A DNA stretch of 64,000 nucleotides from a virus (IMGVR_UViG_3300020419_000004), one strand, 5' to 3'. Positions 3,788 through 42,700 are shown, counted from the first letter of the stretch. The notes: generated by a model from the sequence alone, not told the origin. Made by a program: numbers and translations.

Positions 3788-4519
3788 ATGACAGGTATCT
3801 ACGCACTTGCAGAGTCCCAAGACGCACGCATTGCTCAGTATACATTTGGTAAGAGCATAGCACAGTTCGGTGTTAGTGTATTCTCATGCAATAATGCACG
3901 CAAAGGCAAGAAAGTGTTCGGCAACGATCCTGACCCAGTGAAGGAGATCATGCTAGAAACACAGGATGATATTATATCTGCACATATAAAGAGTAATCCT
4001 GACGGGAAGGTAGCAGGTTACGAGAAGATTATACGGGAATGTGGTCAGACATATCAAGTACACCACAGAACTGTATCGTTTGGTAGTACATGGAGGAGTG
4101 ACTCAGTCAAGCTATCAGACTATTCATTGCTATATCACGCTAACTCACACACTCACTTCCGTTTTCCTGGTATGAATAGACTGACATCACGAGAGGATGG
4201 AGGCACAGTTGCATGCTCAGGATTTGAAGATCTCAGTGCAACCGCACGTAAGGTGCATATGTTTGAGTCAAGTGACAGCTTTACACCCGCAGGTAATGGT
4301 AGTATAATAGTTCCTATGAAGGACATCTACTATCATAAGAAGAAAGTTTATCAACATTATCCATTCCCAGTATCAGAACTAGATACAGTACAGATCTCAG
4401 TTGATGAACCTACACTGGTCTTGGAATTTATTACAGATCAAGAACCTGATGTTGCAGAATTCACGCAGTCATGGTTAAATCAGATAGAAGAGGGATTAAT
4501 CGAAATCGTAAACAGATAA
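3788..4519 (+). CDS. Hypothetical beta-rich protein, paralog of next gene
   Basis: ATG at 3788, 1 nt after the previous stop. Shares FGxDP and FRxxGxxRxTS motifs with 4523-5194. Confidence 0.75.
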   Translation: MTGIYALAESQDARIAQYTFGKSIAQFGVSVFSCNNARKGKKVFGNDPDPVKEIMLETQDDIISAHIKSNPDGKVAGYEKIIRECGQTYQVHHRTVSFGSTWRSDSVKLSDYSLLYHANSHTHFRFPGMNRLTSREDGGTVACSGFEDLSATARKVHMFESSDSFTPAGNGSIIVPMKDIYYHKKKVYQHYPFPVSELDTVQISVDEPTLVLEFITDQEPDVAEFTQSWLNQIEEGLIEIVNR

Positions 4520-5588: not shown

Positions 5589-6074
5589 ATGACAGTAGCA
5601 ACCGCACCTGCAACACTCGAAGAAAGAGTACAAGGTTGGGCTAACGATCTATGTTCAGCACTAGACTTAAACTATAAGAAGCAAGCAATCAGACATCATG
5701 AGAGAGAACTAGCAGATGAGAGATCATATGCGGAGTATCATGAAGAGCAACTAGACAAGATTGCATTTGGTACTGCTAACCTAAACAGATTTGTTGCATA
5801 CACAGGACGTAAGTACATCAAGATCGTTATGCAAGAGTTTGGCAGACACGAGACAGAGTACAAGGACAGCACTGTACATGCATTTATAGATAAGAAGACA
5901 GGTCAGGTGTATATGCCTGCAGGTTATAATGCACCAACAAAGACAGGTAAGTATCCAGTAAGATGGGACTTAAGAATTATCAAGGATAGAGAGTATATCC
6001 TTAATCCAGTAAACTGCACATGGTCTGGTGGTTATCTTTACGATAGATCAACTTTACCTACCAAGTATATCTAA
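5589..6074 (+). CDS. Hypothetical phage protein
   Basis: 161 aa, AGGAG RBS; GRKYIKIV...HAFIDKKTGQVYMPAG motif of a type seen in phage early genes. Confidence 0.8.
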   Translation: MTVATAPATLEERVQGWANDLCSALDLNYKKQAIRHHERELADERSYAEYHEEQLDKIAFGTANLNRFVAYTGRKYIKIVMQEFGRHETEYKDSTVHAFIDKKTGQVYMPAGYNAPTKTGKYPVRWDLRIIKDREYILNPVNCTWSGGYLYDRSTLPTKYI

Positions 6075-6102
6075 GACCCCACAGGGGGTCTCAGACCCCT
6101 TT
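6074..6102 (+). terminator. Hairpin / possible intrinsic terminator
   Basis: AGACCCC-ACAG-GGGGTCT, or alternatively GGGGTC-TCA-GACCCC followed by TTT. Confidence 0.45.
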
Positions 6103-6114
6103 CAATAGAGAATT

Positions 6115-6372
6115 ATGCCAGTATATAGAGACTACGAGATTAGACTTAACCTCAATGAATTAATAGAACACAGGATACCAACCTGTGATTTGTTGCATCC
6201 AGACCATTGTTTATCTGAAGCACAGGTGGCACAGATAGCACACGATATTAACATGGATTTAGATCTGCATCCAATCTATCATCAGATAGATGATCACATC
6301 ATGCGGTATGTCAAGGCAGCAGGTATTGATAACTCAGAACATTGGGTAGAACCTAAACTCAAAGACCTATGA
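6115..6372 (+). CDS. Hypothetical cyanophage protein
   Basis: 85-aa ORF with AGAG upstream; overlaps the next start. Confidence 0.75.
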   Translation: MPVYRDYEIRLNLNELIEHRIPTCDLLHPDHCLSEAQVAQIAHDINMDLDLHPIYHQIDDHIMRYVKAAGIDNSEHWVEPKLKDL

Positions 6373-17663: not shown

Positions 17664-17723
17664 GTTACAGATTGTTTCAATTCTCTATCTTTCACTACTC
17701 ATCATACACTTACCGAGTATAAT
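17664..17723 (+). promoter_or_regulatory. Promoter with HLR1-like tandem repeat
   Basis: GTTACAGA-TT-GTTTCAAT (17664-17681); TATAAT at 17718-17723. Confidence 0.6.
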
Positions 17724-17729
17724 AGTAGT

Positions 17730-17891
17730 ATGAACAAACTTCAAACACATTTCAACGGTGCAGTACTCATGAACGAGACAGCAACCAAAGACAAAGCAGT
17801 AATGGCAGCATTAACAGCAATGTCGAAACGCAACTTTGAACCACAGGAAATCAATCGCTATGGCATATGGTACATAAGCGATAGGCACTAA
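17730..17891 (+). CDS. Small hypothetical protein, probably leaderless
   Basis: ATG 7 nt downstream of TATAAT; 53 aa MNKLQTHFNGAVLMNE... Confidence 0.7.
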   Translation: MNKLQTHFNGAVLMNETATKDKAVMAALTAMSKRNFEPQEINRYGIWYISDRH

Positions 17892-17897
17892 GTGCCT

Positions 17898-18116
17898 TGG
17901 GCATTGATTGGGCATGGTGAGAGTCCATGCATAAAGGAGATCAATCTATGTAAGTCCCATTCCACTAGGCAGTAAGAACCTTAAATGACCGTGTATTGAA
18001 CATGGTGGTTGTAACGTAAGTCCTATCCCACAGTCAGGCAAGCGTGACCTCATTCCTCTAAGTCTAAAGACTCGCGAGACGGAGGTGGTACAGGTCTTTA
18101 ATTTGAAGCTCTGACT
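17898..18116 (+). ncRNA. Putative structured non-coding RNA, three tandem bulged-stem units
   Basis: Closing stems TGGG/CCCA, TAGG/CCTA and AGTCAGG/TCTGACT with a shared G(T)AAG(T/C) bulge, joined by TTCCAC and TCCCAC linkers; no ORF. Confidence 0.6.
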
Positions 18117-18155
18117 CTATTCTAGCACGAAGGATGTTGGTTCGGCCACAGGCGA

Positions 18156-18213
18156 GTGCCAGTTTACAAAGTGTCCACTGAGTCATGACTCGGTGGGCAT
18201 TTTCTTTTATAAT
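18156..18213 (+). promoter_or_regulatory. Early promoter with upstream motif and palindrome over the -35
   Basis: GTGCCAGT-N9-GTCCACT (18156-18179); perfect palindrome GAGTCATGACTC (18180-18191); ATGACT N17 TATAAT (18208-18213). Confidence 0.75.
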
Positions 18214-18240: not shown

Positions 18241-18495
18241 ATGCTAAATCAAACTTCACTCAACCTCACCGATCTCCCAAAGAAGGACTATAACGGTTGG
18301 TCAGACTGGACTACATGGAATTGTGCCTTATGGGTTGGAGGTGACGAAGGACTCTATAACCTCGCTAAGGACTGCGAGTCATGGTTCGACTTCATCATAT
18401 GCATGCAAGATATGGGCATGAACCAGACTCCAGATGGTGCAAAGTGGACAGAAGCAGACTATGACGAGATGATGGAGATGATGGATGAATTGTAA
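18241..18495 (+). CDS. Hypothetical phage protein (YNGW family)
   Basis: YNGWSDWTTWNCALW...DEGLY motif. Confidence 0.75.
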   Translation: MLNQTSLNLTDLPKKDYNGWSDWTTWNCALWVGGDEGLYNLAKDCESWFDFIICMQDMGMNQTPDGAKWTEADYDEMMEMMDEL

Positions 18496-39731: not shown

Positions 39732-42700
39732 ATGGCACAGAATACTAACCTGAACATAGCTCCTTACTACGACGATTTTGATCAGAGTAAGGGTTTCCTA
39801 AAAGTACTGTTCAAGCCTGGCTACCCAGTCCAAGCGAGAGAACTTACTACGCTTCAGAGTGTACTTCAAAATCAGATCGACACATTTGGTACAGGTGTCT
39901 ATAAAGAAGGTTCTATGGTGGTGCCAGGTGGCATTACACTGAACAATGATGTAGCTTGTGTCATAATACAAAATACGTACCTCAATTTAGATGTAGAACT
40001 ATACAGAACTGCTCTCGATGGATTAGTTATTAAGGGATCAACCTCTGGTGTGCGTGCCCGTATACTATTTTCTATTAGTGCTACTACATCAACTAAAAAT
40101 AATATCACATTCTATGTCAATTACCTCCAAAAGGCAACTGACAACACTACTAGTTACTTCTCAGATGGTGAAACCTTCACTTGTGAGACTGATTTCACTT
40201 ATGCTTCCACAACTATTGCTGCTGGAACACCTATTGCACAGTTATTAAACTCTAATTCTAATAGTAGAGGTTCTACAGCGAGTGTAGGATCTGGAACTTA
40301 CTATGTTAGAGGATATTTTGTTCCTGTAAACGAACAAACTCTCATTTTAGACCAGTATGGCACTTCACCATCATATAAAGTTGGTCTAAAAGTAGAAGAA
40401 AGGATTATAACTGCTGATGAAGACGCAACTCTTTACGATAATGCCATTGGTAGTACCAATTTCTCAGCACCAGGTGCCGATAGATTTAAAATTAACCTAT
40501 CTTTAGTCAAAAAAGCAGTCACAGACCCCAATGCTGCTGACTTTATTGAGCTTCTTAGGACTGATACTGGTAAAATTCAGAAGAAAGTCGAACGTAGCAC
40601 ACTAGGATTCATCAATGATGTCCTTGCTACTAGAACAAAAGAAGAATCTGGTAACTATTATGTCAAGAAATTCACTATAGATGCAAGAGAGAACCTTGAT
40701 GATGGGTTTAACAATGGTGTATTTGCTTCAGGCTCTACTACCTCTGATGGTAATACTCCATCTGAATCTAATATTGCTGTTCAACTATCTGGTGGTTCTG
40801 CATACATTTCTGGTTACAGAACAGAAAGACTATCTACATCTTATAAGGATGTGGAAAAACCAAGGACTTTTGATACTGTAGTAAATCAATCTCTTACATC
40901 TGATTTTGGTAACTATGTCTTCATGACAAACCAACATCAAGCACCTACCATATATGAGACAATTGAACTAAGAGATACAGTCACTACAACACCAGGTAGT
41001 CCTGCAGGTACTGTTATAGGTCTAGCAAGATCTCTTAACTTCTATCATGAGTCTGGAGCATATAATAATCAAGAAACAGTTTACAGGACATATCTTTCTG
41101 ATACTCAACTGTTTACAAAAATTACGTTAACTGGTAGTGGGACTTGGACAAATGGAAGAAAAGTGTACGGTGCAACTTCAGGGGCTACAGGATTCTGCAG
41201 ATCGGGTTCAGGTACTACTGGATATCTTTACCAGACTAATGGTACTTTCGTTGCAGGAGAAGACTTAAAGGTCAATAATGCTGGCGGTGCTGCTCATGGT
41301 ACTATTGCAGCTGGTGGAGTTAGGGCATATAACTTTAGTGATGTAAAATCATATGCATTCTCATCTGGTGGTGGTACTGCTGATGCAGTCATGGATGTTA
41401 GAGTTGCATTACCTGGCTCAGGTCCTATTATCTCTGGTCAGAGTGGATCTGGTACATCTCAAACTGCTACTATTACAGCAACCTTATCTAACTTCAACAC
41501 TCAGTTGAAAGTAGGTGATCTTGTTGAGTTTTCAAACAATGGTATAGCACATAAGTGTTCAGTTACTGCTGTTACCAGTGGTTCTGTATTCACAGTTCAG
41601 AAAGCAGAAGCTGGTGCAGGTAACATGGCTAATGGTGCTATCAATGGTAGTGTTGTTAGATCTCGTCCAGAAATTAAGGAAGCAACTAAGAAGAAACTCC
41701 TTACACCACTAGGATTTGAAGCATTAAAGAATACTAATAATAATAACAGTCAAAATCCTGCAGGTTATTACAGGATGAGTGTAACAGGCGTTTCTGTAAG
41801 TGGTGGTGCTGCTACAGTTGATGTAGGTTCAGGTCTATTAATTAAGAATGCAGACAGTGGTGATGACTTTGTTGTCAGTGTCACATCTGGTACAGGTGAT
41901 GGAGATATATTAAAAGAAGGTGACTTTACTACAGGTAATCCCTCAGTCAACACACAGTCTGTTGCTCTAGGTGGTTTATGTGGTGGTGGTTCTGGTACTA
42001 TTGATGTTACTGTAACAGTATACAGTTCTAATAGATCTGCTAAGGCAAAGACCACTGAGAGGATGAAGATCCTTAAAATTGACAAGACAACTGTATCTGG
42101 TAGTCCAAATGGTCTAACAACTGCTACTACTGGTAATGGATACAGAGTAGATGATGACCGTATCGCTTTAGGTACTGGTGATGTATTCAAGGTTAAGGCA
42201 GTATATGAATCTGTAAACCAATCAGATCCACAACTTCCTCAGTTTACCTATACAAATTTACTAGGTACTCTATCTGTTGACGAAGTTATCACAGGAGATA
42301 CCTCAGGTTCTAGAGCAAGAATTATATCAACCACAAGTAATATTGTATATTTCATCCCAGTAGAGGATGATGTGTTCACTGACGGTGAAACTATCACAGC
42401 ACCTAATGCTACATTAAAGATCACTACAGGTGGACTTGTTAAGGGTGCAACTGATATAACTGATAGTTTTGATTTAGATGATGGTCAGAGAGATCAATAC
42501 TATGATTATTCAACTCTTACAAGGAAGGCAGGTTATTCAGCACCTACACATAGAATATATGTTATAGTTGATCGTTTCCTTACTACTGCAGGTGTTAACC
42601 CATATACAGTAGATTCTTATTCAACATCTGAGTATAAAATTATACCAGAGTTTGATACTGGAAACCTTAGAGATGTTATTGACTTTAGACCAATAGTTGC

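Follow-up and report, generated by a model that had tools for sequence, protein, structure and literature searches.

What occupies the 350-nt gap that separates a 53-aa ORF on one side from an 84-aa ORF on the other in this phage genome (Table 1)? The initial annotation of the window, by which we mean the whole stretch of 64,000 nucleotides analysed here, had read positions 17898-18116 on the + strand as three consecutive folded units lying in an ORF-free region, and had taken them for repeats of a single bulged stem, suggestive of a multivalent protein-binding or processed small RNA. As a reading of the DNA this description is accurate: the stems, bulges and inner hairpins are all where they were placed, as are the linkers (TTCCAC between units 1 and 2, TCCCAC between units 2 and 3), and the MFE fold of each unit reproduces the described stems. 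The region is ORF-free in a qualified sense, for mechanical ORF calling finds two frames (35 and 53 aa) that run across part of it on the minus strand, although nothing supports either as a gene. Its limits had been drawn too tightly: the three units are real, but the structured region is longer and includes a fourth hairpin and a terminator. Fold energies show no excess stability over dinucleotide shuffles (z of -0.85, -0.92 and -0.37 for units 1, 2 and 3), and single-sequence folding z-scores are non-significant on both strands, so the case for structure rests on comparison between loci.

Table 1 Features of the array locus, with positions counted from the first nucleotide of the window.
Feature	Position	Strand	Description	Basis or remark
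TATAAT -10 box	17718-17723	+	ATG of the 53-aa ORF 6 nt on	read from sequence
53-aa ORF	17730-17891	+	phrog_27623; C-terminal ISDRH	homologue of P-HM2 early gene PHM2_068
Stop-codon hairpin	17884-17896	+	GGCAC-TAA-GTGCC; 5 bp, stop in 3-nt loop	read from sequence
Unit 1	17898-17959	+	adaptor stem TGGG/CCCA with GTAAGT bulge	family of 5 variants
Unit 2	17966-18025	+	adaptor stem TAGG/CCTA with GTAAGT bulge; core 17972-18015	19 variants, covariation, covariance model R1
Unit 3	18032-18116	+	7-bp closing stem AGTCAGG...TCTGACT, internal loop GCAAGCGTGA ... TTTAATTTGAAGCT, variable insert	regex, alignment
Unit 3 insert hairpin	18055-18085	+	CCTCT-AAGTCTAAAGAC-N6-GAC-GGAGG	loop recurs with covarying stems
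Fourth hairpin	~18122-18162	+	GCAC...GTGC	fold; absent from the initial annotation
Terminator-like hairpin	18168-18203	+	intrinsic terminator-like hairpin with T run; 16 pairs	fold
TATAAT -10 box	18208-18213	+	next transcription unit	read from sequence
84-aa ORF	18241-18495	+	phrog_871; motif YNGW-DWTTWN	conserved downstream neighbour of the RNA region

The gp25 and gp6 baseplate genes of the source phage display 76-78% DNA identity to those of the Prochlorococcus phages P-HM1, MED4-213 and P-HM2, and judged by this resemblance it is a P-HM1/P-HM2-like, T4-like cyanomyovirus. The 53-aa ORF is 62% identical to PHM2_068 of P-HM2, and PHM2_067 to PHM2_074 all fall within the early expression cluster of that phage (PMC5082946, supplement). 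Because PHM2_068 and its neighbours are early genes, the placement of the array in the early region, proposed earlier, holds by homology. The small ORF and the -10 box said to precede the array are likewise present; since the box lies only 6 nt before the ATG, the mRNA of the 53-aa ORF may be leaderless or near-leaderless, and in the relatives L146 and L118 the distance from box to ATG is ~25 nt. The hairpin that holds the stop codon of this ORF in its loop recurs, with TAG, in L211, L198 and L201. The 17-nt stretch containing it (17882-17898) is 82% identical to the start of unit 2.

On the other side of the units, the fourth hairpin has a counterpart (GGCAC...GTGCC) at the same position in L200 and L118, just ahead of a TTTACA element, and the strong terminator-like hairpin of the window, as folded, probably marks the 3' end of the RNA. 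Window positions 18160-18213 hold a conserved element, (C)CA(C/G)TTTACAAA(C/G)TGTCC, ahead of the terminator hairpin and the next TATAAT; the same element lies 3' of RNA modules in L200, L211, L172 and L118, and a diverged form, CCACTCTATAAACTGGCAC, is found in S-SSM7. The TTTACA sequence is -35-like and yet unfit for a standard promoter, because ~40 nt separate it from the -10 box, which is too far. At all loci the modules are co-oriented with the flanking ORFs. PHROG annotation places the neighbouring ORFs in families of unknown function only, with no RNA-binding or RNA-processing protein among them.

Are the three units copies of one another? Several observations speak against the repeated single unit of the initial annotation. 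Tandem Repeats Finder detects no array in 17898-18116, and the sole direct repeat between units is the 16-nt GTAAGTCCNATNCCAC (88% identity), in the 3' part shared by units 1 and 2. A covariance model of unit 2 (R1) hits one copy in the window and fails to detect unit 1, and the CCAC linkers, thought to be fixed, are not conserved in syntenic loci. Comparison between loci shows instead that units 1, 2 and 3 belong, by their alignments, to three different RNA families. All three are conserved in the DNA of other marine phages and display compensatory changes, and the proposal of a structured non-coding RNA on the sense strand is borne out. The suggested analogy with the ToxI or pseudo-ToxI antitoxin repeats fails on the same grounds. 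Like the modules, ToxI and pseudo-ToxI are phage-borne small structured RNAs, which would act by binding a protein, and the window does present consecutive units with similar linkers in an early region. However, ToxI consists of tandem near-identical repeats of 34-36 nt, no ToxI-type Rfam model matches at the gathering threshold or at E<=10, and no ToxN-like gene is found among the neighbours searched. Since the units lack repeat identity, an antitoxin mimic of repeated units is largely refuted and in our estimate scarcely credible.

What units 1 and 2 do share is NNGG-C on the 5' side and GUAAGU-CCNN with a few linker bases on the 3' side, and nothing else. Generalised, this is an adaptor, NNGG-C...cargo...-[G/A]UAAGN-CCNN, whose complementary outer pairs form a 4-bp stem and which both units match. 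The pattern occurs 48 times in sense and once in antisense orientation in 345 kb of T4-like cyanomyovirus loci, around cargos of 14-97 nt that are of many unrelated sequence types. Anchoring the search on GTAAGNCC only gives 42 sense and 3 antisense sites, and an exact complementary NNGGC lies within 130 nt upstream of 37 of the 42 sense sites, where chance would supply ~0.11 per site. One Synechococcus genome shows no enrichment of the pattern, and in the whole 129-kb IMG/VR contig to which the window belongs, sense-strand adaptor units and unit 3 are found at the array locus only. The compensatory change from TGGG/CCCA in unit 1 to TAGG/CCTA in unit 2 is true covariation, the adaptor stem taking five pair types across loci. 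The GTAAGT bulge, described earlier as a feature of the unit, belongs to this separate adaptor: it surrounds the unit 2 core in the T4-like subset only, and the core occurs without it in other phages. These matches show that T4-like cyanophages use one adaptor stem for many unrelated structured cargos. Kink-turn, sarcin-ricin and UAA/GAN readings of the adaptor loop were rejected on inspection as misfits to the respective consensus.

The cargo of unit 1 begins with a helix (ATTGAT/ATCAAT), followed by the hairpin GCATGG-TGAGAGT-CCATGC and then a bulge, ATAAAGGAG. Alignment of five variants (the window, L167, L176, L172 and L174) reveals compensatory changes in 6 of 19 pairs: the inner hairpin is found as GCAUGG/CCAUGC, GUAUGG/CCAUAC and UAGGG/CCCUA, and the second helix and the adaptor also carry such changes.

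The core of unit 2 comprises an irregular helix (G-C, U-A, A.A, A-U, R.R and AACC/GGUU), a 7-nt bulge (UUAAAUG) and a 7-bp hairpin with the 5-nt loop AUUGA. A blastn search against cultured and GenBank phages returned a 95% match of 40 nt, internal to unit 2, from Marine virus AG-345-O18, and pattern scans of IMG/VR and JGI metagenomes returned 19 distinct variants in marine phage DNA; looser patterns gave mostly chance matches, which a hairpin-pairing filter removed. In the resulting alignment 98% of cells are paired and five pairs display double-sided changes, such as one of A-U to G-C in the AACC helix and two of U-A to A-U, one adjoining the A.A mismatch and the other in the hairpin. None of 500 shuffles reached the observed score, and all slid registers were far worse. 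A G-U pair of the hairpin, compatible with the + strand only, is kept in 18 of the 19 sequences. The invariance of parts of the core is partly an ascertainment artefact, because the search patterns fixed those bases; the covarying positions had been left free. Beyond the core, the outer stem covaries freely (TAGG/CCTA, CTGG/CCAG, GAGG/CCTC, GTGGGAG/CTCCCAC, GTGTAAGAG/CTCTTACAC and GGCTTCAAG/CTTGAAGCC). Model R1 scores window positions 17954-18033 at 79 bits (E 3e-20) and finds exactly one copy per locus, while outside the ~45-nt core the flanks are unrelated between loci. The core pattern has 0 matches in 185,579 bacterial and archaeal species (one genome each). At the AG-345-O18-type locus a helicase, a DNA methyltransferase and phrog_455 lie beside the motif, and since by these three neighbours the locus does not look T4-like, the unit 2 motif probably extends beyond T4-like phages.

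Unit 3 is defined by an internal loop with GCANGNGURR on its 5' side and UUUAANNNGAANCU on its 3' side, a covarying N6-N12 pair and an inner helix. The window matches the corresponding regex, which in related loci hits the sense strand 24 times and the antisense strand 0 times. Across 12 sequences (the window and 11 relatives), 12 of 15 pairs show compensatory changes: the N6-N12 pair is seen as G-C, C-G and A-U, the closing stem takes at least seven sequence forms, and the inner helix covaries. The loop of the insert hairpin, AAGUCUAAAGAC-N6-GAC, recurs in L005, L118 and L146, followed there by a T run, on the stems GTCCCT/GGGGAC, GGCACC/GGTGCC and AGTCCCC/GGGGACT, respectively; apart from those in L005 and L146, matches to the exact insert pattern were chance ones. 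One more module, ~130 nt long, is common to these three loci (L005 at ~6015-6150, L118, and L146 at ~3820-3950) and has no counterpart in the window. It runs through ...GTAACTC-GAT(A/G)(A/G)GCATGGAA(T/A)TTGC..., then a hairpin, then a stretch rich in A and C (CAACCACACAA in L005 and L118, CAACCTAACAACACA in L146), and ends in the AAGTCTAAAGAC hairpin.

Searched for in bacterial genomes, the unit 3 pattern turned up in coding sequences, by chance, and otherwise solely in one 194-kb phage-like contig. L247 (193,981 bp, from a Synechococcus sp. CUG2217 MAG) has an adaptor unit with a unit 3 module behind it and is as long as a cyanomyovirus genome; it probably represents a phage that was binned together with its host. 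In the cultured phage S-SSM7 (L245, NC_015287; region ~41900-42050), the annotated CDS SSSM7_050 (a hypothetical protein of 33 aa) overlaps a unit 3-type module with the closing stem GTGAGAG/CTCTCAC and is, because of this overlap, probably a mis-annotation; near-identical copies of a promoter cassette, ATAAACTGGCACACAG(A/G)TGGTTG, stand on both sides of that module. A tRNA-like acceptor end was considered for unit 3 and rejected: the A-CCA of many relatives coincides with the start of the conserved promoter-proximal element CCACTTTACAAACTGTCC, and the window is without it.

How stable is this arrangement between phages? With the 53-aa ORF family as query we collected 80 related viral loci, in most of which, P-HM2 and P-HM1 among them, the next ORF follows without a gap. 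Eight others (L146, L211, L172, L174, L198, L200, L201 and L202) have 215-450 nt of non-coding DNA and then the 84-aa ORF family, and these syntenic stretches consist of recognisable modules in differing combinations. As aligned, the loci show that the site between the two ORFs holds variable module combinations, or none, across relatives. Modules can also be nested: in L118 a unit 2 core sits within a unit 3-type loop, itself within an adaptor. In the same locus (1666-2318, oriented) the 53-aa ORF homologue lies downstream, not upstream, of the RNA modules, so the order of ORF and RNA cassette is permuted between relatives. Among cultured phages, P-HM2 (GU075905 41397-41461) and MED4-213 (NC_020845 71701-71764) carry the same adaptor at the same site with different cargos, followed in both by an identical unit 3-like module. 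Both stretches are unannotated, and in P-HM2 the units fall where the early cluster (PHM2_074) gives way to the middle one (PHM2_075).

Exchange of this kind could operate on DNA, with the conserved palindromic adaptor and the modules forming single-strand hairpins at which cassettes of the hyperplastic early region recombine or are exchanged, much as in T4-type promoter-stem-loop cassettes, REP/BIME or integron attC. REP/BIME and the T4-type promoter-early stem-loop cassettes are short conserved intergenic palindromes, often clustered, that have been linked to gene-cassette shuffling. The cargo replacement on an identical adaptor in P-HM2 and MED4-213 fits such a role, as do the promoter cassettes around the S-SSM7 module and a 17-nt direct repeat around unit 2 in L009 and L127. 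Those known elements, however, are uniform hairpins, whereas here an adaptor stem of just 4 bp encloses diverse cargos that are themselves conserved and covarying and carry sense-specific G-U pairs. Moreover, the strand bias follows the direction of transcription and no recombinase gene is associated with the modules. We therefore consider a DNA-level function unlikely.

The positions that modules occupy relative to genes bear on what the RNA itself might do. In seven independent lineages 20-28 nt separate the end of the unit 2 hairpin from the start codon (ATG) of a small ORF, in many cases an acidic one, and the ORFs behind this leader are unrelated to each other. L119 has a terminator directly 3' of unit 2, and in L130 (527-679, Sargasso Sea) unit 2 sits in an adaptor with a tRNA-Asp(GTC) gene within a few bases on its 3' side. 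The ORFs that follow the core in L006, L114, L123, L128 and L131 are small and strongly acidic, with no mutual homology found; small, strongly acidic ORFs are typical of early host-takeover or DNA-mimic proteins. In L009 (~5740-5870) and L127 the repeat that flanks unit 2, GATTCTCTC(C)TCTAATA, is 17-18 nt long, direct, and looks like a duplicated junction.

The strongest rival to an RNA acting in trans is that the modules act in cis, on the stability or translation of mRNA. They would then be UTR elements, either terminal structures shielding early mRNAs from host RNase E, RNase J and 3' exonucleases, or devices setting the translation of small ORFs through a bound repressor or 30S subunit. 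The distance of unit 2 from the ATG in seven lineages is no less compatible with a cis-acting leader than with an RNA that acts in trans; in L006-type loci a terminator and a TATATT box immediately precede unit 2, which would place it at the 5' end of the mRNA; and a stop codon on one side and a terminator on the other enclose the modules of the window and of its syntenic relatives. A simple protective hairpin, however, would have no need of ~34 invariant or covarying positions common to otherwise unrelated phages. The same unit 2 core is found in 5' leader, 3' tail and tRNA-adjacent positions alike, upstream of mutually unrelated genes, and the flanking ORFs of the window do without any module in most relatives. 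A cis-acting role is thus possible, though we lean against it.

The leader position also suggests that one or more modules might be ligand-sensing riboswitch aptamers: unit 2 is a compact, highly conserved bulged hairpin found in this position in several phages, and the orphan riboswitch-like motifs manA, wcaG and glnA are known in T4-like cyanophages (PMC2864571, PMC9964418). The downstream genes, however, are small, unrelated and mostly acidic, with no metabolic theme, there is no evident expression platform, and the window module is not upstream of a start codon, which makes a riboswitch very unlikely. Highly improbable, too, are translated minigenes that sequester ribosomes or tRNAs like lambda bar. 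The candidates are a four-codon ORF, AUG-ACC-NNG-UAY-stop, in the bulge and hairpin of unit 2 and, in unit 1-type modules, an AUG-UAA at the adaptor bulge. All 19 variants preserve the unit 2 mini-ORF with an in-frame stop in the loop, whereas a stop would survive in just 23% of random loops; in one variant UGA is lost and UAA gained one codon earlier. AUG-UAA stands ahead of the adaptor stem in all unit 1-type modules. But the third codon varies (V, E or L) and tracks its pairing partner rather than the peptide, the ORF lies hidden within a 7-bp helix, there is no conserved Shine-Dalgarno sequence, and other adaptor units have no AUG before GUAAGU.

Do the modules correspond to any RNA already described? 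Rfam 15, searched by cmscan at the gathering threshold and at E<=10, returned no relevant match for the window, for its 901-nt and 281-nt sub-regions or for 20 related loci, in keeping with the earlier statement that no family was recognised. The manA, wcaG, PhotoRC-II, glnA and abiF models were found neither in the window nor in the 20 related loci, and the modules show no correspondence to the cyanophage RNAs CfrI, PhotoRC-II, wcaG, manA, glnA and abiF (PMC9964418, PMC2864571). ARAGORN detected 0 tRNA genes in the window and, among 38 loci, none except the tRNA-Asp beside the module of L130; RF00005 has no match at E<=10, the 7-bp closing stem of unit 3 notwithstanding. Small self-cleaving ribozymes (hammerhead, twister, pistol, HDV-like) were rejected, with no core motifs and no Rfam match. 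The modules are confined to phage DNA, being found neither in bacterial genomes nor in Rfam.

The closest parallels are ones of kind. Like the modules, manA and wcaG (RF01745, RF01761; PMC2864571) are orphan, intergenic, sense-strand RNAs recognised by covariation, without an assigned function and almost confined to marine metagenomes and T4-like cyanophages. The modules differ in having no sequence or structure match to them by cmscan, in being smaller, and in forming mixed arrays in which a shared adaptor holds exchangeable cargo, an organisation undescribed for manA or wcaG. The tRNA gene cluster of phage T4 encodes two stable RNAs, called C and D or species 1 and 2. They are small and structured, lack an assigned function, and derive from a polycistronic transcript that also yields other small RNAs. 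The unit 2 of L130, directly upstream of tRNA-Asp, resembles them in its setting, whereas the window has no tRNA gene. Literature searches by motif and topic turned up no account of the motifs; a 2023 catalogue of ~10,000 candidate viral structured RNAs (PMC10690425) lay outside the sequence comparison, and overlap with it is possible. The modules count among orphan phage structured RNAs, and there is a real chance that their adaptor-and-cargo organisation is categorically new.

The explanation we prefer, and to which we give an even chance, is that the gap is a mosaic of sense-strand structured RNA modules that acts as a stable multi-domain early RNA binding a host or phage factor. The array would be transcribed early as the 3' tail of the 53-aa ORF mRNA, ending at the 18168-18203 terminator, and would act, whole or after processing between units, as a stable non-coding RNA with several domains. 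Its partner would be a conserved factor of the host or phage, and the putative contact is a recurring hairpin flanked by an A/U-rich bulge. Bulges of this type, picked out by inspection, are UUAAAUG in unit 2, UUUAAUUUG and UUUAA(A/U)NNG in unit 3, AUAAAGG or (G)UUUAAAGG in unit 1, and UUAAAAG in another common cargo. Because modules swap rapidly, an accessory role in host takeover or counter-defence is suggested, not housekeeping of the flanking genes. That the unit 2 core is shared with a phage whose neighbouring genes do not look T4-like points to a conserved cellular target.

More tentatively, the modules may form an RNA cassette system, in which the adaptor with its GUAAGN bulge presents interchangeable structured cargos, of which the loci compared contain at least eight sequence types. 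These cargos would be shuffled between phages and joined into early multi-domain non-coding RNAs, each cargo serving as decoy or effector against a different host factor. If true, such a system would parallel, at the level of RNA, the hypervariable islands of anti-defence genes.

Marine T4-like cyanophages rank among Earth's most abundant viruses, and the hyperplastic early parts of their genomes tend to be interpreted as series of tiny, uncharacterised ORFs. Our comparison indicates that part of this space encodes conserved, modular structured RNAs undescribed in databases, with members that are unannotated, or mis-annotated as a 33-aa protein, in the cultured phages P-HM2, MED4-213 and S-SSM7. 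As these phages grow on Prochlorococcus MED4 or Synechococcus WH8109, the function of the modules is directly testable. If confirmed, an adaptor with exchangeable RNA cargos would represent a new principle of phage genome plasticity.
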